Shown here: in pieces, positions 46,554 to 56,772 of the stretch
Layout: each line of letters opens with the position of its first letter
Position numbering within the stretch: position 1 is the stretch's first letter
Virus record (IMG/VR): IMGVR_UViG_651703101_000001
Location: 64,001 to 128,000 of that record
DNA length: 64,000 bases
Direction: 5' to 3' (one strand)
Origin: a virus
Lineage: Duplodnaviria; Caudoviricetes
Program-made: the position numbers and the translations under genes
The notes under the pieces: generated by a model
The model's input: the letters and a program-made list of their open reading frames with translations, nothing else
The model's database searches: none
Told to the model about the DNA's origin: nothing

Positions 46554-49067
46554 TTAGGCAAAAAATGATTCTAGGGTTACTTGTTTTTCGGTATGCCATC
46601 CGACGGCATCCATAATGGTCTGCAATGGGTCGATAAATCCCTTCTGATACATCATATCATAGTCAAGATACCGTGTCAACCCCAATTCTGTCGGTAGATC
46701 CTTAGGAAAGGCTATGATATTTTCGTGAGTCGGGTTTGGAATCTTAAGAAAGACAAACTTAACTTTATCACCGTCACGGATATTTGAATAACGGTTTGTA
46801 AGATTCTTCTCTTTGATGAGTTTATTGAATGAAATACTACCCCTTACGTGATACGGAGTAGATTTCTTGTAACCTATAGGTCCACCACAAATGAATTGGC
46901 TGATGTTATTTGCAGTTCTAGGAAATGCAATATCTTCAACCGGAAGGGATTTGAACTCTTTTCTCTTTTCATTAATGTAAGCAATGAGTTGATCTTCAGT
47001 TCCGTTCATGAAGATCTTCAGACAATCTGTAATATACTCACGACAGGGAACCGGAGTAGAGGATTTTACAGCCTCGATTCCCATCATTTTGAGTTTTGCC
47101 TCTTTATACCGAACACCTTCATTGTCCCATACATTCAGAATATAACGTTTCTTGGCACTCCAAATTCCCTTTTCTGCAATCGCTTCTCTCTTCATGACCA
47201 TGGTATTATCATAGGCATTTAGGTACTCTGCCAATTCATCATAAGATGAATCAATAAAGGGAATGAGTTTTGCTTCCGTAAAGGAATCCAACATTTCAAC
47301 AATTTTGTTAGTTGGAAGTGCACTACTATTCGGAATAGACTCGACTAAAGGACCAAGATTTAAGTATACAGAGTCTGTATCAACATAGGCAACATAGTCG
47401 AAACCAGTTGTTTTGAGAACTTTGTTAAGATACTCATTCAACTTTCTCTCGATCCAACGAATTGCAACTTGTCCAGTCACAGTAATTGCCTCAGCATTAT
47501 CCACACGATAATGACGGAAATACTGATTACCGATCGCCCCATAAAGAGAGTTCAATTGAATCTTACGAGCCATTTGGAAGTTACTCCACTTAGCAATCTC
47601 TTTACTTAATTGTTTGGTGGGATTTTGTTCATACTTTCTCTTGGCATCAAGCATGTTATTCTTGTACTGTACACGTTCATCATAGATCTTCTTCACAAGT
47701 TCAGGCATGAACCCGAGAATATCTTTACGGTACATACAACCATTCGCGGCGATGGTTAGGTCCGATGAGGCTGCCTGTAATTTATCTTTCTTCTGAATCA
47801 AGTCTTCCTTATTTACATGAATCTTGGAGTACAAAGTTTCTGGAGAAATATTCAGGAACCGAATCAAAGAAGGATATAGAGAGTTAAGGTCAAAGTTCAC
47901 AATCCAGTTATATGCACCTGGAATGGGTTCTTTAACATATGCACCCTCATACTGATCATTCTTTTCAGATCTTACAACCGGAGAAAGAACAATATTCTTT
48001 TCTTTCAAAAAGTTGTAGATGATGACATCCCAAAGTCTAACTTGACGGAAAGTATCTTCGTAGTTGCAATGAGAATCGTATGAAATCAACATGATCAATT
48101 CGATCAGTTTCATCTTTTCTTCTAACTTGTCAACAAGATTAACATCACGAATATTATACTCTGTGAACTTTTGCCAGTTTTTGGTGTAGAACTCTTGGAA
48201 TGTATCGTACTCGGAGTGATCTAGTTTCTTTTCACCAAGTTCAATTTCGGCGATTGCGTCCAGTTTATAGGAGGCTCTGTTGATAAATGCGAATTTCTTA
48301 TAGGCGGCAAGATAGTCTAGGACAGAAACACCAACAACATCAAATCGTTGTTCTTTTCTGTTATTAACCTCTACTTCTTTCTCCAATACAAACTTCCATG
48401 GAGATAGACTTTTTGCGTCAGTTTCTCCAAGAATTAGATTGATTCTGTTGTAGAGATAAGGAATATCAAAACCTTCAATATTCCATCCAGTTATAACTTC
48501 TGGCTCTTCTTTTCTCCACCAAGTAAGAAATTCATGTAATAGATGTTTTTCATTATTACACTTCAGGTAGTGAATTTTGGAATTATTAGTAATAAATTCA
48601 CCACAACCAAATGTATAGACATCTTTGGTTTGGAAATTCTTAAGAGAAATTAGAAGAATCTCCTGATCCGCAACACGAATATTCGGGAATCCATTTTCTG
48701 CAGTAGTCTCAATATCTAAAGACCAAAGTTTAATCTTTTCAGGTTCGTAATTTACGTCACCACGAAACTCTTCGGATAGAAACTGATACAGAATCTTTTC
48801 CATTCCGTATACAGTTACACCCTCAACATCTTTGTAACGTTGAAGAAAGTCTTTACAATCACGAATAGATCCTGGCTGAACTGGAGCCACAGGAATTCCA
48901 TCTAGAGTTCGATATTCTGTTGGTTTGTCTGTTTTTAGATAGAACGTTGGTTTGAAAGGATACTTGTTGTTGAAGTATCCTTCGGATTCGCTCCAGCCTC
49001 TACAGAGAACGTTGTTTCCATATAGAGTTGCGTAGGTGTAATGTCTCTTCAAAGTTGTCAGTTGCAA
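46554..49067 (-). CDS. gp43: DNA polymerase (family B) gp43
   Basis: DIET exonuclease motif, FDLNSLYPS, KIQLNSLYG, YVDTDS, KKRY. Confidence 0.98.
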   Translation of the reverse strand: MQLTTLKRHYTYATLYGNNVLCRGWSESEGYFNNKYPFKPTFYLKTDKPTEYRTLDGIPVAPVQPGSIRDCKDFLQRYKDVEGVTVYGMEKILYQFLSEEFRGDVNYEPEKIKLWSLDIETTAENGFPNIRVADQEILLISLKNFQTKDVYTFGCGEFITNNSKIHYLKCNNEKHLLHEFLTWWRKEEPEVITGWNIEGFDIPYLYNRINLILGETDAKSLSPWKFVLEKEVEVNNRKEQRFDVVGVSVLDYLAAYKKFAFINRASYKLDAIAEIELGEKKLDHSEYDTFQEFYTKNWQKFTEYNIRDVNLVDKLEEKMKLIELIMLISYDSHCNYEDTFRQVRLWDVIIYNFLKEKNIVLSPVVRSEKNDQYEGAYVKEPIPGAYNWIVNFDLNSLYPSLIRFLNISPETLYSKIHVNKEDLIQKKDKLQAASSDLTIAANGCMYRKDILGFMPELVKKIYDERVQYKNNMLDAKRKYEQNPTKQLSKEIAKWSNFQMARKIQLNSLYGAIGNQYFRHYRVDNAEAITVTGQVAIRWIERKLNEYLNKVLKTTGFDYVAYVDTDSVYLNLGPLVESIPNSSALPTNKIVEMLDSFTEAKLIPFIDSSYDELAEYLNAYDNTMVMKREAIAEKGIWSAKKRYILNVWDNEGVRYKEAKLKMMGIEAVKSSTPVPCREYITDCLKIFMNGTEDQLIAYINEKRKEFKSLPVEDIAFPRTANNISQFICGGPIGYKKSTPYHVRGSISFNKLIKEKNLTNRYSNIRDGDKVKFVFLKIPNPTHENIIAFPKDLPTELGLTRYLDYDMMYQKGFIDPLQTIMDAVGWHTEKQVTLESFFA

Positions 49068-49075
49068 ATGGTAAA

Positions 49076-49462
49076 TTACTCTTCAATATACATCACTTCG
49101 TCGTTTTCATCGACATAGTGATCTCGCTCCTCATAGTCATCAAGGTCTTCGGTAAGAAGTTGTTGAGGGGGATTCAGTTCTTCTAATGTTTTTCCGATTG
49201 TTTCTAGATATTTTGTCAGAACATTTTGACTCGGATCACACATAGTCTTGATATCCCTACTATAAAGTAGAATATCTTCTTCGTCGGTATACCTTGGCCA
49301 CTTCTTAAGAGAGAAAGAAAATGGACTTATTTTTAGTTCTAATTTTTCTAGTTCCTTAATCTCATATGGTTCTCTCAAATGACAACTAGGTTCAATACCT
49401 AGTTGTTCTACTTGAGAAATCAAGTATTCTCCACTATTCAGGAGAATTAACGACACTATCAT
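49076..49462 (-). CDS. Conserved hypothetical protein (Sm-like)
   Basis: LILLNSGEYLIS..CHLREPY..KWP. Confidence 0.7.
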   Translation of the reverse strand: MIVSLILLNSGEYLISQVEQLGIEPSCHLREPYEIKELEKLELKISPFSFSLKKWPRYTDEEDILLYSRDIKTMCDPSQNVLTKYLETIGKTLEELNPPQQLLTEDLDDYEERDHYVDENDEVMYIEE

Positions 49463-49784
49463 GATCTTCTATTTCAATTGTTGGTGGGTTCAAGGTATTT
49501 AGATACGACTCTCTGACCCCATCTGTTGGGGTATGTGCAGAGACAATCCAATTGCAATTAAGTGAAAATTCATTATCATCTGTTAGACAACAATATTTCA
49601 TGAAAGATGCCTCAACACCAGGAGGTGAATACACACCACCATGCACGGAGTCATGTATTGGGTGATAATGTACCATCATAGGATCCCTCACCCGCATAAA
49701 ATCAGGATGATCATCTTCTTTTACATGTGCAACAATATGGTGGCCATTTGCAGTCACTAGGACTTTGATTTCGTATTCATTCAT
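49434..49784 (-). CDS. Conserved hypothetical protein (Sm-like)
   Basis: IKVLVTANGHHIVAHVKE..NWIVS..P. Confidence 0.7.
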   Translation of the reverse strand: MNEYEIKVLVTANGHHIVAHVKEDDHPDFMRVRDPMMVHYHPIHDSVHGGVYSPPGVEASFMKYCCLTDDNEFSLNCNWIVSAHTPTDGVRESYLNTLNPPTIEIEDHDSVVNSPE

Positions 49785-49815
49785 AATAAAAGACCCCCGA
49801 AGGGGTCGGTAGTGT

Positions 49816-50223
49816 TTACTTAATTGGAAGAATCTTTTTCTTTTGATCTTCTGGTACTTCTCTACGAAGATATACCCTTAACATTCCATTATCATGTGTG
49901 ACACAATCTACCTTTACATCATCACCCAGATTCCAGGATTTTGTAAATGATCTTTGTGCAATTCCTTTATATGTATACTCTCTAATATCTTCTTCATTTT
50001 TTCCGCTAACTGTAAGAGTATGTTTTTCGACAGAAACTTCTAGATCATTTTTACGATATCCTGCAAGGGCAATTTCAATAAAATGATTATTTTCGTCTTG
50101 TTTTACAATGTTGTATGGCGGGAAGTTGGATCTGGTGTCATGCATATGGTCTAATCTACGAAAGAAATCTTCTAGTCCAATTCCATATGGAGTATAGGTT
50201 TCCCATTTAGCTAGATTTGTCAT
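49816..50223 (-). CDS. hsp20: Small heat shock protein
   Basis: NFPPYNIV, EIALAGY, KGIAQRSF, NGML..VPE; late promoter at 50277-50284. Confidence 0.95.
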   Translation of the reverse strand: MTNLAKWETYTPYGIGLEDFFRRLDHMHDTRSNFPPYNIVKQDENNHFIEIALAGYRKNDLEVSVEKHTLTVSGKNEEDIREYTYKGIAQRSFTKSWNLGDDVKVDCVTHDNGMLRVYLRREVPEDQKKKILPIK

Positions 50224-50314
50224 AGTTCTCCTATTAAAGCAAGTAATGAATAGTGGTCCCCGAAGGCAACCACTCATATTTATAGGACATAATCCTGGAT
50301 TTGTCAAGGGCGGT

Positions 50315-50719
50315 TTACCCTACAATTTTCTTTGATCCGATTTGATACTTGGGCTCAAGAATCCAATCTTTCTTCTCTTTAAAAGGAATGATTTTAATTT
50401 GTGAGACTGGTACCATTTCTTCAATTTTAGTTGAGTCTACGACTTGAACCAGACCCCAATCACTGAGGAGCTTAGTAATTCTATTTCTTCTCTGAATATC
50501 ATTTTCAGAAAGATCTGATGCCTTACCATCTAACAGGAATAGTTCCTTAAAAGAAACAATGTAATACTTTCCCTGTTTATGAAGAATGTGACAGGACTGA
50601 TAAAGTTTATTTTCAGTTCTTGATGCTACTCCAATTCTGGTTAGTGTTTCTCTAACCTTAAGAAAGTCATCGGGTTGATTTAATCTGACCTCAACTAGAT
50701 CATTGGCTGTCCATTCCAT
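50315..50719 (-). CDS. regA: Translational repressor RegA
   Basis: PDDFLKVRETLTRIGVASR..LYQSCHILHKQG. Confidence 0.97.
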   Translation of the reverse strand: MEWTANDLVEVRLNQPDDFLKVRETLTRIGVASRTENKLYQSCHILHKQGKYYIVSFKELFLLDGKASDLSENDIQRRNRITKLLSDWGLVQVVDSTKIEEMVPVSQIKIIPFKEKKDWILEPKYQIGSKKIVG

Positions 50720-50753
50720 AATAATAAGAATAATGTTTATTCTTATTTAGGTT

Positions 50754-51083
50754 TTAGTCAACTAACAGTTCATTCAAATCACCATTCCAAAATGGAATAA
50801 ACCACAATGTATTCATATACGCATGTTTACCAGCTAGAGCCATTCTATTCCATGCGGAATTTGGAATAGAATTTGCCTTATGTAGCTTTTCATGCAAGAT
50901 ATTAAGCTCTTGCTTTGTAATAACCGACACAAGTTGTCCATTATAGAAGTCAAGAACTTCTTTCTTTAGTTTTTCACCTTCATAGGTTAGTTCAATTTCA
51001 GGTTTAATATTAGATTCAATTGGTGCACGAGATTCTACCCAAGTCCGTTTAAGACTCTCTAGAACTTTGACAAAATAATTCAT
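50754..51083 (-). CDS. Hypothetical protein coupled to the MTase
   Basis: ATGA overlap with the MTase stop. Confidence 0.6.
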   Translation of the reverse strand: MNYFVKVLESLKRTWVESRAPIESNIKPEIELTYEGEKLKKEVLDFYNGQLVSVITKQELNILHEKLHKANSIPNSAWNRMALAGKHAYMNTLWFIPFWNGDLNELLVD

Positions 51084-52225
51084 TTGAGTTTAGATAATAC
51101 GTTTTTATAGACGGATGAGGCAATTTCTTTCATCATTAATGGAGGAACCATTCTTCCGATTCTTTCTGCCCTCTGTTTCCAGGATCCAGTCAAAACAAAG
51201 TCTTCAGGAAGTGATTGAATTCTCATCATTTCTGGAATGGTGATCTTTCGATTTTCTAAAGGATGAATCACACCACCAAATGTAACATTGGCACAACCCA
51301 TGGCTGTCAGTGTGGGAGAAGGTTGGAACATTGACGCCCTCTTCATGTTGAACGCGTGACCTTTAGGGTGAAAGTCGCATCCATTCAAAACTTTCGGTGG
51401 GTTGTCTGGCATCTTGGACGCAACATTGAGATATAGATTAGACTTCAGCCACTTTTCATTCATTTCTTTGATTTCTAGTGGATCATTGACCAATCCAACC
51501 ATACCCTCACCAAAAGTCATTTTAGTGCCAGATTCTGGTGGAAATAGACTAGAAATATTCAGGAATGTCATTCCTACTTTCTCCGCGATATCTTGACGTA
51601 CCGCAATGAAGATAACTCTTTGTCTATTTTGCGGAACACCATGACGACAGGCATTCATGACTTTAGAGGCAACATAGTATCCGATATTCTCAAATTCCTT
51701 GAGAATACGGTTGTAATAACTGACAGCCTCACCGATTGTAAGACCTTTGACATTCTCACCTACAATGACTTTTGGTTGAATTTCCTCAGCAACCCTTAGG
51801 AATTCAAAGAAAAGATCTTCAATATTGGTCTGTTTGATTCCATCTGAATAGTGCTTGGTCTTTCCCCATCCATCAGAGTGTGTTGCTCCCGCAGAGCGAC
51901 ACATGGAACCTGCTACAGAGAATGCTGAGCACGGTGGGGAACCATCAAGTAAGTCTAACTCACCCGGCTTGAGACCAACTTTATCTAGAAAGTCCTTACC
52001 AGTTAATTGACGAATATCATCAGGAAGAATGATAGTTTCGGGATAATTTTGATGATATGTAATTCTTGCTTCTTCAACAAACTCATTAATTGCAAGAAGT
52101 TTACCACCGGCAAGTCGATAACCGGTCGAAGATCCACCACCCCCAGCAAATGTAGAAATGACTGTAAATAGTGCACGGTCTGATGAATCGTGCACGTCCT
52201 TCATTGTGTATGGTGTGTAAGTCAT
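51080..52225 (-). CDS. C5-cytosine DNA methyltransferase-family enzyme, likely carboxymethyltransferase
   Basis: Motif I FAGGGG, IV GSPPC, VI ENV, VIII QNRQR; motif X reads IGRMVPP instead of IGNAVPP. Confidence 0.92.
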   Translation of the reverse strand: MTYTPYTMKDVHDSSDRALFTVISTFAGGGGSSTGYRLAGGKLLAINEFVEEARITYHQNYPETIILPDDIRQLTGKDFLDKVGLKPGELDLLDGSPPCSAFSVAGSMCRSAGATHSDGWGKTKHYSDGIKQTNIEDLFFEFLRVAEEIQPKVIVGENVKGLTIGEAVSYYNRILKEFENIGYYVASKVMNACRHGVPQNRQRVIFIAVRQDIAEKVGMTFLNISSLFPPESGTKMTFGEGMVGLVNDPLEIKEMNEKWLKSNLYLNVASKMPDNPPKVLNGCDFHPKGHAFNMKRASMFQPSPTLTAMGCANVTFGGVIHPLENRKITIPEMMRIQSLPEDFVLTGSWKQRAERIGRMVPPLMMKEIASSVYKNVLSKLK

Positions 52226-52917
52226 TTTAACGCAATCACACCTACGAACTGATGATTTCTCCAGAAGATTTGTGTTGCGTGAAATCCTGCAGAAAGAACC
52301 ATACGATTTAGTTCACCCCAAGTATTGGGTTTCAACATATCACGAAGTTGCTTTTCTTTATTCATGATTTCTTCTGGAGTGAATGACTTACGTTTGAAGT
52401 CATAATAGTTGAAGGTCAAGAGTTCTTGAAAGAAAGCATCTTCACACATTAGTTTCTCGGCGAAGATAAATGCCCCACCTTCGTTGAGGCCTCCGTAAAT
52501 CCTGTTGATCACTTCCTGTCTGTCAGTCTTGGGCATGAACTGTAGAGTGAAGATAGAGGTGACTAGAGAACAGTTCTTGAAGTCATAATTACGAATATCA
52601 CCACGAACAAACTCAAGAATCGCAGAAGGATGATCTTTACGAACTTCTTTGTATCGATTGTCCATATCGTCATAGAAACTACCTGCAAGTTCCACACCAA
52701 CATACTGTGCGTACTGTCGATTGGGATTCTCCGCAATAATCATTTTGGTGAGTTTACCTGTAGAACAACCAATGTCTACTACTTTGGTATGATCCTCTAC
52801 AAAATAACGGGAGAAGGCAACTGTGTCTTCTAGAAGATTGGAATAACCACGAATAGAGTGGTCGATGTGATTGTCAAACCCTTCCTGAGATTGGGCGAAT
52901 GTGAAATCGTAAGTCAT
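52222..52917 (-). CDS. cmoA: CmoA-like carboxy-S-adenosylmethionine synthase
   Basis: FDNHIDHSIRGY, VDIGCSTG, GDIR, FTLQF, GLNEGGAFIFAEK, YDFKR, AGF..FW..F.GVIALK are collinear with E. coli CmoA. Confidence 0.88.
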   Translation of the reverse strand: MTYDFTFAQSQEGFDNHIDHSIRGYSNLLEDTVAFSRYFVEDHTKVVDIGCSTGKLTKMIIAENPNRQYAQYVGVELAGSFYDDMDNRYKEVRKDHPSAILEFVRGDIRNYDFKNCSLVTSIFTLQFMPKTDRQEVINRIYGGLNEGGAFIFAEKLMCEDAFFQELLTFNYYDFKRKSFTPEEIMNKEKQLRDMLKPNTWGELNRMVLSAGFHATQIFWRNHQFVGVIALK

Positions 52918-53159
52918 AATGCATCCTTAATAATACTTTTTGTCATTGGTGTCAGACGACTTATCGCTTCATAAAGGTCTTCTGCAGAAGCATAGTTAAG
53001 ATCGTCTACCAAACTATTTAGCCGACTTTCACAGTCCTCACATTCATATTCAGCCTCTACTATCCCTAATACTACTGGACAATCGTCATCATAGTATTTA
53101 CATCCACACCTTTTGCAACAGTGTGTTGCATGCACACCTATCTTGTCTACTTCTATCAT
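52914..53159 (-). CDS. Cys-rich (Zn-binding?) small protein
   Basis: HATHCCKRCGCKY..CPV..ECEDC; ATGA-coupled to cmoA. Confidence 0.6.
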   Translation of the reverse strand: MIEVDKIGVHATHCCKRCGCKYYDDDCPVVLGIVEAEYECEDCESRLNSLVDDLNYASAEDLYEAISRLTPMTKSIIKDAL

Positions 53160-53380
53160 CCTCTTGGTCCTCCCATGTAGGGATAAAGATGTTTCCATGA
53201 CTCATAGGCACCAGCAGTCCATGGGTGAGAATAGGGATTATTCTCCCAGGATTGGATTTGTTCTTTTGTTCCTTTCCATAGAAGGGGATGTTCTTGTTCA
53301 CTCAACATATGTTGACCTCTGTTGGATATCACCCACTCTTCAAATCTTTCTCTCATTCTAATAGTCATTAGATCCACCAT
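53156..53380 (-). CDS. Hypothetical protein
   Basis: RERFEEW..Y..W pattern. Confidence 0.55.
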   Translation of the reverse strand: MVDLMTIRMRERFEEWVISNRGQHMLSEQEHPLLWKGTKEQIQSWENNPYSHPWTAGAYESWKHLYPYMGGPRG

Positions 53381-53496
53381 TTAGCATCCCAAAAAGTTAT
53401 AACTAGGCAAAGGCCAAGGATGGCCAAAAGACCGACAACGACAATCCCTAATGCCTGTACAAGAGTGATTACCCAAACTGGTATTACGATAGTCAT
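53368..53496 (-). CDS. 42-aa TM micropeptide (not in ORF track)
   Basis: MTIVIPVWVITLVQALGIVVVGLLAILGLCLVITFWDAKWWI; ATGA-coupled to gp62. Confidence 0.5.
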   Translation of the reverse strand: MTIVIPVWVITLVQALGIVVVGLLAILGLCLVITFWDAKWWI

Positions 53497-53864
53497 TTTC
53501 CACCTTTCTCCATATGTTTACGGATCCATTCTAACTGATCATCGGTCAGGATGTCAAGTGCCTGCTGGGCCTTACGGTCACTGAAACCATAATGATCTTT
53601 TAACATTGCAATGTTTTCTAGTGTATCATTTTTACTCTTTTTCAACCATTTTTCAAATCGGTTTCCCTTCTTTACAGAATGATAATAGAAGTCGAATTGC
53701 ATATCCTTGGGAAGCTCAGGATAACGGTTCAATTCATTGGCCAACAATACAGTGTCAGGAAATGCGGAAAATGAGTGATTAGTGAGATAGGGCACATAAC
53801 CACTCATGTCTTCTACATCAGTTTTCTTTTGGATTGCTTTGATGTAGTCAAATGCGTCAGCCAT
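53493..53864 (-). CDS. gp62: Clamp loader small subunit gp62
   Basis: FDYIKAI..YVPYLTN..DTVLLANELN..MQFDF..YGFS..KAQQAL.IL. Confidence 0.92.
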   Translation of the reverse strand: MADAFDYIKAIQKKTDVEDMSGYVPYLTNHSFSAFPDTVLLANELNRYPELPKDMQFDFYYHSVKKGNRFEKWLKKSKNDTLENIAMLKDHYGFSDRKAQQALDILTDDQLEWIRKHMEKGGK

Positions 53865-54018
53865 TCTTTACATAAGAGATATTGAACTTTGTTCCGTCAG
53901 AAAGTTGAATAGAACCGGTTTGTTCTTTACTCAACATGAACTCATATAGTTGATTGCGCGCAGGTTCGTCTGCGAGGACCTTTTTCATGTTTTCTGAAAC
54001 TGGAATGTGGTTATACAT
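53857..54018 (-). CDS. Hypothetical protein
   Basis: ATG at 54018 (MYNHIPVSE...). Confidence 0.5.
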   Translation of the reverse strand: MYNHIPVSENMKKVLADEPARNQLYEFMLSKEQTGSIQLSDGTKFNISYVKNG

Positions 54019-54022
54019 TGAA

Positions 54023-54133
54023 TTAGGGTGTGATAATAAACAAAATAAGAGCAATAATCCAGGCAGTAAGTGCTAAATCTGATGGATATAAAATATCCAC
54101 TATTGCTGTAAAGATAAGAAGAAATGCCTTCAT
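54023..54133 (-). CDS. 36-aa hydrophobic micropeptide B
   Basis: MKAFLLIFTAIVDILYPSDLALTAWIIALILFIITP. Confidence 0.55.
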   Translation of the reverse strand: MKAFLLIFTAIVDILYPSDLALTAWIIALILFIITP

Positions 54134-54265
54134 TTAACTAATAGAAAAAATACACCAAATGAAAAGAGCAACAAACATTATAGTTAGTGTCAATTCAGAC
54201 GGATACAGAATATTTGTAAACGCAGTAAGCAATACAATTAGTCCTGTAAAATTGAAATAACTCAT
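54134..54265 (-). CDS. 43-aa hydrophobic micropeptide A
   Basis: MSYFNFTGLIVLLTAFTNILYPSELTLTIMFVALFIWCIFSIS; ATGA-coupled to gp44. Confidence 0.55.
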   Translation of the reverse strand: MSYFNFTGLIVLLTAFTNILYPSELTLTIMFVALFIWCIFSIS

Positions 54266-55194
54266 TTGTAATCAAGTAACATGAGCTCTACCATCATTGC
54301 CAGAGTGTTGACTTCTTGATCCACAACGAATGCAGACTTGTAAGAATACTCTGCAAATGTAAGAATTGCCTGGGGAATAGAAGCTGGTTGAAGGTTTGAG
54401 GGAAGTTCATCATAAAGGGACCTGACCAAAGATGTAAAATCCTGATCAAGATTTTCAACTACCCATGTTCTAACCTCTTTGAACTTCTTGTTTTTCAGAG
54501 ATTCAATAACTTCCTTGACAGAAACTGTGCAAACTTCAGTAAGAATACCGGTGTCGATAGTCCCACCCTGAGAATAACGTTGAATTTCATTCAACGCACG
54601 GCGGAAGTCTGGAAAGTGTTTATTAACAAATGCGGCGACAACTTTCTGATCATATGTTACTAGATTTTCATCCAGAATATTACACAATCTTTTGAAGAAT
54701 TGACTCGCAAGTGCCGGTTTCTCTTTTGACGGAATCACAAAATCAATCACCGCACATCGAGAATGTAGGGCAGGAATGAGTTTGTTCTTGTAATTACAAG
54801 TCAAAACGAAAGAACAATTGTTCTGTAGTTCTTCCATCGCAGCACGAAGAGCCTTTTGGGCATCTCCTGTTAGATTATCTGCTTCGTCAAGTAAAAGGAC
54901 TTTACGATCCCCAGTTAGAGAAGTTGTAGAACCGAAAGAAAACATCTTATTTCTGACATCATCAATGCCCCGCTCTGAGGAGGCATTCATGAACATCAAA
55001 TCTGCGTTAATTTCATTACACAGAGCTTTCACGGAGGATGTTTTTCCGATACCTGCTCCACCGGAGAGGATAAGATTTGAGACCTTTCCTGTTTTGACAA
55101 ATTCTTGAAAGGTAGTCTTAATTGTCTTCGGGAGAATACAATCATCAATCGTCTGTGGAGCGTAGCGCTCCACCCACAAAAATTGGTCACTCAT
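54262..55194 (-). CDS. gp44: Clamp loader large subunit gp44
   Basis: FLWVERYAP, GGAGIGKT, LDEAD, LHSRC, FPDFRR. Confidence 0.97.
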   Translation of the reverse strand: MSDQFLWVERYAPQTIDDCILPKTIKTTFQEFVKTGKVSNLILSGGAGIGKTSSVKALCNEINADLMFMNASSERGIDDVRNKMFSFGSTTSLTGDRKVLLLDEADNLTGDAQKALRAAMEELQNNCSFVLTCNYKNKLIPALHSRCAVIDFVIPSKEKPALASQFFKRLCNILDENLVTYDQKVVAAFVNKHFPDFRRALNEIQRYSQGGTIDTGILTEVCTVSVKEVIESLKNKKFKEVRTWVVENLDQDFTSLVRSLYDELPSNLQPASIPQAILTFAEYSYKSAFVVDQEVNTLAMMVELMLLDYK

Positions 55195-55862
55195 CAGGAG
55201 TTATAGAAAGAATTGGACGGATCGATAGCAATATAATATTTGATATTACTACTTTGGTGAGTAAAGCGAGAGAGCATTGAGGAAGAAATCACAACATCAT
55301 AATCCCCAGAAATGATTTTAAGACTCTCAACCTTGAAGACGAATTCAAACTCAGTATCACACTGTCCAACTTCAATTTGATAACTGTTAGATCCTGAATT
55401 CTTCTTGTCAGAAACGACGATCTTAATAGTCTCACCATCACCTTTCAGAGAAACATCAGGAATTTGAAGAACTGCAGCTGCCTTCTTGACAGTCTCTAGG
55501 TCTTCTTGTTTAAGAACGAAACAAACATCTTCACTAGGAAGAGAGAGTTCTTTATCTGGAGGAGTCTGAATAACAGATGGCTCGGCATATCGATAATTGA
55601 TAGAATTTGAACCATCAGTAATTTGAATATAATCTTCTAGAAGATTGACTTCTGCACCTGGAATTAGGGACAAACAGTTAAGAAACTGAGAAAGATCATA
55701 AATTGGAACATCCCGTTCAAACGTTTCAGTGACAACTGCTTCCCCGAGCAGATCTTTCATTGAAGAAAGAGTACGCAAAGAAGAACCAGCTTTGATCAAA
55801 AGATTTTGATTAATGGTTGCAAAGTTTTTGAGAATTGAATGAGTCTCTTGTGAGATAAACAT
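55194..55862 (-). CDS. gp45: Sliding clamp gp45
   Basis: ILKNFATINQ, IYDLSQFL, YYIAID. Confidence 0.95.
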   Translation of the reverse strand: MFISQETHSILKNFATINQNLLIKAGSSLRTLSSMKDLLGEAVVTETFERDVPIYDLSQFLNCLSLIPGAEVNLLEDYIQITDGSNSINYRYAEPSVIQTPPDKELSLPSEDVCFVLKQEDLETVKKAAAVLQIPDVSLKGDGETIKIVVSDKKNSGSNSYQIEVGQCDTEFEFVFKVESLKIISGDYDVVISSSMLSRFTHQSSNIKYYIAIDPSNSFYNS

Positions 55863-55908
55863 AATAAAAAGTAAGGCGGTTGTAGTTTAGTCGAAGTTGG
55901 TCGGGTTG

Positions 55909-56772
55909 TCAAGGGCCACCACAGCTACAGGATTTTGGAAATCTACAGCACTTAGGATCATACCCACCATTTGTACAGTCAGGCCAATTGGCAATGCATT
56001 CTGGATCACGGGGATCACGATGTTCTTCCCATGGATCTTCTAAGGGTTCGGATGGTTTGGGGAATTCAATTCCGTATTGTTTGAGTTTGTATGTTAGAAG
56101 CTTCTCCCATGCCTTAAGAGTCTCTTTATTTTCTCTATCTTGTTCTGGAGTGGTTTCGATCCCGTTATGTTCCAGAAGTTGTTCCAACGAATCGAACCCT
56201 ACATTATTTTTTATTTGACTTCTGCCAACACCTTCACCGGAACAGATAATATTCATCTGGCCAGGCCGAGAACCGACAACACTTGGACCATTATTGATCA
56301 GTGGAGTAGACGGAATTCCGTCTACTCTACATTCATCGGGAGTGAGAGGGCGCCGGTGACCGGCGCGGTATAACGAAAACCATTCCTCTGACGGGGTGTT
56401 TTCGCCGGGTTTATTTTCATAGTCCCATGCATCATCGATAGATCTGGGCCTTTCGCCATAGTCACGGATCACACGTTTGGCAGTTTCAAAATTGACCTCG
56501 TTCTGACGTTCAAGTGCAATGATCAGAAGGATGAAATAACCTGCGAGATCCGGCACCACATCTTCATCAGATGCCAGTAGACCTGCTCCTTTGGAGATTC
56601 GATTGAGTTTGTCGTCAATCCGAACAAGAATTTGTTCAACTGGATTAGCTTTACTCATGATTCGAGCAGGATTTAATGCTGCATCCCCGTACTTTTCATT
56701 CTTAGAAAGAAGAAGTTCTTTAATTCTATCACAAGTTTCTATTATATCTTGTCTAGTTTGGTTGTTACTCAT
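55909..56772 (-). CDS. Nucleotide-modification-associated domain 1 (DUF1599-like) protein with Cys-rich tail
   Basis: LLLSKNEKYGD..ILVRIDDKLNRI..DLAGYFIL; tail CIANWPDC..YDPKCCRFPKSCSC. Confidence 0.75.
   Translation of the reverse strand: MSNNQTRQDIIETCDRIKELLLSKNEKYGDAALNPARIMSKANPVEQILVRIDDKLNRISKGAGLLASDEDVVPDLAGYFILLIIALERQNEVNFETAKRVIRDYGERPRSIDDAWDYENKPGENTPSEEWFSLYRAGHRRPLTPDECRVDGIPSTPLINNGPSVVGSRPGQMNIICSGEGVGRSQIKNNVGFDSLEQLLEHNGIETTPEQDRENKETLKAWEKLLTYKLKQYGIEFPKPSEPLEDPWEEHRDPRDPECIANWPDCTNGGYDPKCCRFPKSCSCGGP

Follow-up and report, generated by a model that had tools for sequence, protein, structure and literature searches.

Does a virus that encodes a homologue of CmoA, a synthase of carboxy-S-adenosyl-L-methionine (Cx-SAM), together with a DNA cytosine C5-methyltransferase (C5-MTase) in which the motif-X asparagine is replaced by arginine, use the two proteins to write 5-carboxymethylcytosine (5cxmC) into its own DNA? 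This question is raised by two overlapping genes in a 64,000-nucleotide stretch of viral DNA (positions 64,001 to 128,000 of the IMG/VR record IMGVR_UViG_651703101_000001; hereafter, the window, to which coordinates refer unless another locus is named): cmoA, for a carboxy-SAM synthase homologue of 231 amino acids (52222-52917, minus strand), and cmoX, for a homologue of DNA cytosine C5-carboxymethyltransferase of 381 amino acids (51080-52225, minus strand). Both were assigned from the list of open reading frames (ORFs) and by homology. Our analysis indicates that the pair, carried by a T4-like (Kyanoviridae-like) cyanophage, very probably forms a two-gene CmoA/CmoX system for DNA carboxymethylation, which would place 5cxmC on phage DNA and confer resistance to restriction.

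The gene pair and its characterised orthologues

The two genes overlap by the four bases ATGA (52222-52225, minus strand), an arrangement indicative of translational coupling; as read directly from the sequence, the stop codon TGA of cmoA (52224-52222, after '...TTA AAA') overlaps the start codon ATG of cmoX (52225-52223). CmoX matched the C5-MTase family PF00145 with an E-value of 2.5e-50 over profile positions 1-323 of 324, that is, as a full-length domain, scored above the cut-off of TIGR00675, and was the sole PF00145 match in the genome (a record of 178,563 bases, CheckV 100% complete). The motifs FAGGGGSSTGY, GSPPC, ENVKGL, and QNRQRV were all present, with the catalytic nucleophile Cys99 of the SPPC motif (equivalent to Cys98 of SpCmoX, see below) encoded by TGC at 51929-51931 (minus strand). 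Motif X, on the other hand, was ERIGRMVPP, in which Arg358 (AGA at 51152-51154, minus strand) replaces the Asn of ordinary C5-MTases; a phmmer alignment placed this Arg opposite the Asn of 'IGNAVP' in M.HaeIII (1DCT). The overlap of the two ORFs, the otherwise normal C5-MTase motifs, and the Arg codon in motif X had all been pointed out in an earlier sequence-only reading of this DNA, and each was confirmed. As for CmoA, TIGR00740 and NF011995 (the NCBIfam CmoA equivalog models) were by far the best families, and the E. coli CmoA structures 4GEK and 4IWN were matched with E-values of about 1e-28 (8.8e-29 for 4GEK).

A full-text literature search for such a system found its description by Yang et al. 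(Nat Commun 2025, PMC12783734) in the Synechococcus phage S-B43, which, like the virus studied here, is a T4-like cyanophage without CmoB. SpCmoA forms Cx-SAM from SAM and prephenate with a kcat of 2.33 per s, vs. 0.23 per s for E. coli CmoA (PMC12783734). SpCmoX, a C5-MTase homologue, forms 5-carboxymethyl-dC in vitro, but needs the presence of cmoA to do so in E. coli; a GC motif is required for the modification, which blocks HhaI (PMC12783734). In the structure of SpCmoX at 1.9 A (8YF3), Arg350 contacts the carboxymethyl group of Cx-SAM and replaces Asn304 of M.HhaI, and the wild-type enzyme takes Cx-SAM only, not SAM, while the R350N variant takes neither cofactor (PMC12783734). The same paper also notes, in its Discussion, that engineered M.MpeI (N374K), with a basic residue in place of the motif-X Asn, can use Cx-SAM, giving 5cxmC (PMC12783734), a conversion that the sequence-only reading had cited correctly. 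That reading had, in addition, mentioned a report of a similar system in a Synechococcus phage, and this is the paper concerned; the combination of a phage CmoA with an Arg-type MTase is thus not novel, having been published in December 2025.

CmoA of the window aligned with SpCmoA along its entire length (231 of 231 residues) with no gap and 82% identity, and CmoX was 65% identical to SpCmoX. The best solved structure for CmoX was 8YF3 (E 1.7e-158, residues 4-380), and the runner-up reached only 5.7e-20. All nine SpCmoX residues named by Yang et al. were conserved: the adenine and ribose contacts of Cx-SAM F25, E47, F48, and D69 (F26, E48, F49, and D70 in the window protein), S95, P96, P97, and C98 of the SPPC motif (S96, P97, P98, and C99), and R350 (R358). 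The SPPC motif and an Arg at the R350 position are the two criteria by which CmoX proteins were searched for in that study (PMC12783734), and CmoX of the window has both; the genomic association of cmoX with a phage cmoA is also found here, in the form of the ATGA overlap. Structures of M.MpeI (4DKJ and 8C56) matched only weakly (E about 2e-8, residues 145-232), and M.MpeI N374K differs in being engineered, in carrying Lys instead of Arg, and in targeting CpG.

On the basis of their sequences, the window genes are orthologues of S-B43 cmoA and cmoX. Since these orthologues have been characterised biochemically and structurally, are 82% and 65% identical, and share every named CmoX active-site residue, they support the proposal of the sequence-only reading that Cx-SAM is produced by the phage itself and that the Arg-type MTase writes 5cxmC as an anti-restriction measure.

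The association of the two genes was surveyed in 15 IMG/VR loci, found with the window MTase as the query, together with S-B43 and RN05-S (PV261924.1), a cultured Synechococcus phage. These loci are mutually related and not independent; among them, cmoA was adjacent in all 12 of the other loci with Gly-Arg at MTase motif X, whereas none of the four Met/Asn-type loci (L014-L017) had a cmoA in the locus DNA examined. L014-L016, with Gly-Met at motif X, were near-identical to each other and 32% identical to the window CmoX, L017 had Gly-Asn, and the match in L018 stopped short of motif X. This survey, which the sequence-only reading had suggested for MTases with a GRxVPP motif, is supportive of a pairing of cmoA with Arg-type MTases that is not due to chance, although it does not amount to statistical proof; a survey on a large scale was carried out by Yang et al. 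(PMC12783734).

Divergence of CmoA and of the variable part of CmoX

The points that weigh against DNA carboxymethylation by this pair, or against parts of it, concern CmoA, the variable part of CmoX, and the fate of the product. Although its E-values were low, CmoA fell short of the curated cut-offs of both NCBIfam models, with 119.1 bits against TIGR00740 (E 2.4e-34; 193.3 required) and 105.2 bits against NF011995 (E 3.7e-30; 285 required). Furthermore, Glu188 (in 'NKEKQLR') stood opposite Arg199 of E. coli CmoA in two independent alignments, by phmmer and by MAFFT L-INS-i (the region of this column corresponds to CmoA residues 185-193, window 52339-52365), which bears out the Glu that the sequence-only reading had placed here. 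According to Byrne et al. (PMC3663124), Arg199 forms a salt bridge to the carboxylate of the cofactor and is conserved across the bacterial family.

When E. coli K-12 CmoA was aligned with 13 phage CmoAs (from the window, S-B43, RN05-S, and ten IMG/VR loci) using MAFFT L-INS-i, Glu was found at the Arg199 column in all 13, the active SpCmoA included. Both objections are therefore offset, because SpCmoA has sub-cut-off scores and the same Glu, and the Glu in particular is no argument against Cx-SAM synthesis, since SpCmoA is more active than the E. coli enzyme. Judging from this alignment, Glu at the Arg199 column is a signature of the phage CmoA clade. The replacement may weaken retention of the product and speed turnover, which could explain the ten-fold higher turnover of SpCmoA; a text search for Arg199, R199, and Arg-199 found no mention of it in the main text of PMC12783734. 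An invariant Lys directly preceded the Glu, and an invariant Arg followed it by four residues (Arg192 in the window protein), in all 13 phage proteins. Among the residues binding the SAM moiety of E. coli CmoA, as listed in PMC3663124, Y39, D62, G64, S66, and F137 were identical in 13 of 13 phage CmoAs, D89 was Glu in all 13, N90 and N132 were replaced by Ile, Leu, or Val in all 13, and the positions of A70, D117, and I118 varied.

In CmoX, similarity to SpCmoX was lowest in the variable part that separates motif VIII from motif IX and presumably recognises the target sequence: residues 216-325 were 48% identical, with a 7-residue insertion, while the N-terminal and C-terminal parts were 72% and 66% identical, respectively. 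From the homology, specificity for GpC is likely in the window enzyme; it is not assured because of this lower identity and the insertion. Dinucleotide statistics pointed to no target, since GpC (0.72) and CpG (0.67) were both depleted in the genome. If GpC is the target, 5096 sites would be available in the genome, accounting for 14.4% of its cytosines.

Fate of the carboxymethyl group

In S-B43, 5cxmC is converted into its glycine amide (5gcxmC) by CmoY, an Asn-synthase-like ligase, and 5gcxmdC was found in virion DNA, in which the free deoxynucleoside (5cxmdC) was not detected (PMC12783734). The gene order in S-B43 is cmoA-cmoY-cmoX, whereas in the window cmoY is missing and cmoA and cmoX overlap, such that the expected product would be 5cxmC, and not 5gcxmC. 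No CmoY was found in the genome with SpCmoY as a protein query (E<=10) or by tblastn, or among its 1814 six-frame segments with a hidden Markov model built from five homologues; the CmoY searches recovered CmoY in S-B43 as a positive control. Similarly, PF00733 gave no match in the genome at E<=10 (control positive in 14 of 14 genomes), and no match to the ATP-grasp_4, RimK, or AMP-binding ligase families was found in the whole genome, nor were ParB_N, a second C5-MTase, or Dam-type and N6/N4-type MTases. The suggestion in the sequence-only reading that the carboxymethyl group may serve as a handle for further modification hence receives no support in this genome.

Two-gene systems without CmoY are not confined to this virus. 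In RN05-S, cmoA lies next to cmoX with no cmoY in the whole record, as in the window; its CmoX and CmoA were 66% and 82% identical to the window proteins, respectively, while its two genes are 25 bases apart instead of overlapping. A literature search found no paper on RN05-S. CmoY was located next to cmoX in seven of the 12 other Arg-type loci (L001, L005, L007-L010, and L013) and was absent from the examined DNA of five (L002, L004, L006, L011, and L012), although the absence means little for L006 and L011, in which less than 1 kb was covered on the side where CmoY lies elsewhere. The gene order in the IMG/VR loci was (cmoY-)cmoX-cmoA. A survey including IMG/VR yielded 5,615 candidate CmoX, 4,257 CmoA, and 2,251 ligases (PMC12783734); together with RN05-S, the ratio of ligases to CmoX implies that two-gene systems recur.

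Since the complete genome contains neither CmoY nor another recognisable amide ligase, 5cxmC would probably be left unamidated. That unamidated 5cxmC is also the final base of the virion DNA, here as in RN05-S and some uncultivated relatives, we regard as an evenly balanced proposition. The record is classed as 'linear' and showed no terminal repeats, which leaves a small chance that an end is missing. In addition, 5cxmC could be extended by a host enzyme or by a ligase belonging to an unrecognised family.

In the likelier of two alternatives, 5cxmC would be only an intermediate, and an unrecognised enzyme, encoded by a neighbouring ORF or another phage gene or supplied by the host, would convert the carboxymethyl group further into an amide or ester, decarboxylate it to 5-methylcytosine (5mC), or act in a similar way. 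The S-B43 virions, which hold only the derivative, are a precedent for this, and several ligase clusters were reported and more amide chemistries were expected by Yang et al. (PMC12783734). The sole local candidates are orf109 (50754-51083, minus strand), which overlaps the cmoX stop codon by ATGA, and a small Cys-rich ORF (52914-53198, minus strand; listed with 94 amino acids, but probably 81 from an ATG at 53159), which overlaps the cmoA start codon, also by ATGA. However, both are small and matched no Pfam or PHROG family and no enzyme family, tblastn matched neither of them in the other 12 loci with cmoA/cmoX, and a near-length search of 5.8 billion proteins with orf109 found only orf109 itself. 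The lack of PF00733, ATP-grasp_4, RimK, and AMP-binding matches in the genome and the absence of CmoY from the whole RN05-S record also argue against further conversion, which we consider unlikely in this phage.

Ligases other than CmoY may nevertheless exist, given a RimK-like ATP-grasp gene near cmoX in L004, the locus with the closest uncultivated CmoX (64%). This gene (L004:2154-3248, plus strand; 364 amino acids; PF08443, E 2.8e-34) is flanked by regA and the gene for DNA polymerase and is located 2.7 kb upstream of cmoX-cmoA, in a locus where no CmoY was found; its product may act on 5cxmC as an ADP-forming ligase. ADP-forming ligases are outside the target of the 'AMP-forming ligase' search in PMC12783734.

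Much less probable still, and in our view close to negligible, is that the MTase is an ordinary SAM-dependent enzyme producing 5mC, with CmoA either feeding a host CmoB for the tRNA modification uridine-5-oxyacetic acid (cmo5U) or depleting the SAM of the host to counter its defences. In its favour, the MTase has every canonical C5-MTase motif other than the motif-X Asn, SAM depletion by CmoA was posed as an open question (PMC12783734), and the draining of SAM could be an additional role compatible with DNA carboxymethylation. On the other side, wild-type SpCmoX with the same Arg refuses SAM, cmoA accompanies only Arg-type MTases in the loci surveyed, and CmoB is missing from the genome. The absence of CmoB, which the sequence-only reading had noted for the window, was extended to the whole record, with no match to PF08003 at E<=1 in either (control positive in 13 of 14 genomes). 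The tRNA pathway of E. coli CmoA and CmoB (b1870 and b1871) and the present system have in common the CmoA fold, part of the SAM-binding residues, and the product Cx-SAM; the acceptor in E. coli is 5-hydroxyuridine (ho5U) in tRNA, reached through CmoB, whereas here, without CmoB, it would be cytosine in DNA.

Genomic setting and predicted pathway

The genes flanking the cassette were all T4-like replication genes, and the nearest DNA matches were Synechococcus phages. The inserted block, consisting of an ORF for a hydrophobic protein of 42 amino acids, orf74, the Cys-rich ORF, cmoA, cmoX, and orf109, is bordered upstream by the gene for a gp62-like clamp-loader small subunit (53493-53864, minus strand; phrog_225, E 3.3e-38) and downstream by that for the translational repressor RegA (regA; 50315-50719, minus strand; PF01818, E 7.6e-43). 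In syn9 and S-CAM9, gp62 abuts regA directly. The cassettes of S-B43 and RN05-S share another site, between the side of a MazG-like pyrophosphatase and that of glutaredoxin/gp55. Since its location varies from one T4-like cyanophage to another, the cassette appears to move as a unit among them.

From gp62 to orf109 (51080-53496, minus strand), the start and stop codons of successive genes overlap without interruption. The gp62 stop codon and the 42-amino-acid ORF (53368-53496, read by eye) overlap by ATGA, this ORF and orf74 by TAATG at 53366-53370, provided that orf74 starts at its fifth codon, and orf74 and the Cys-rich ORF by ATGA at 53156-53159. The small Cys-rich protein (HATHCCKRCGCKYYDDDCP...CEDCE) is encoded directly upstream of cmoA. 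This ORF and orf109 serve here as context only: as conserved components of the system, the small flanking ORFs were rejected, having no family and no counterpart beside cmoA/cmoX of S-B43 or of the other loci. A scan for promoters and terminators found promoter-like sites in 49000-56000 to be no commoner than in shuffled sequences (17 vs. 20.9). One such site, TTGACA-18-TAGAAT (11 of 12 positions; 53528-53557, minus strand), falls within the 3'-terminal part of gp62, just upstream of the block, and is no evidence alone.

Other observations were made in the related loci. The Met-type MTases (L014:6001-6954, L015:5926-6975, and L016:2346-3299) retained SPPC, had IGMSVPP as motif X, and had no cmoA nearby; that of L015 followed a gene for a ParB_N-domain protein and preceded the terminase gene. 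In L006, an ORF of 236 amino acids between cmoX and cmoA (L006:2083-2793, plus strand) gave HNH-endonuclease matches that were weak and did not reach the cut-off (E about 6e-4), which is consistent with homing-endonuclease traffic in the cassette.

The gene structure, homology, and residue conservation observed in the window, together with a genome from which CmoY, CmoB, and other ligases are absent, allow the carboxymethylation pathway to be outlined, in which the enzyme activities, the role of the Arg, the GC specificity, and the HhaI resistance are taken from the orthologues. CmoA would convert host SAM and prephenate into Cx-SAM. Arg358 of CmoX would bind the carboxylate of this cofactor while Cys99 attacks C6 of cytosine, and cytosines of the replicated phage DNA would receive the carboxymethyl group at C5, most likely in GpC, as for the S-B43 enzyme. 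The window phage would thereby share the activities and the target motif of its orthologues, with 5cxmC as the end product, and the modification would block cleavage by restriction enzymes. Since the genes belong to a translationally coupled string inside an early replication module, they would be expressed at the onset of DNA synthesis.

The window pair is an uncultivated, CmoY-less member of the published CmoA/CmoX kind. Because the chemistry, structure, and distribution of these systems were already published in December 2025, the pair in itself matters little beyond annotation. Its complete genome, on the other hand, provides a clean example without CmoY or another ligase, and predicts bare 5cxmC in virion DNA, a state not seen in S-B43. 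If this is true, roughly one in seven cytosines of a natural genome would bear a free carboxylate.

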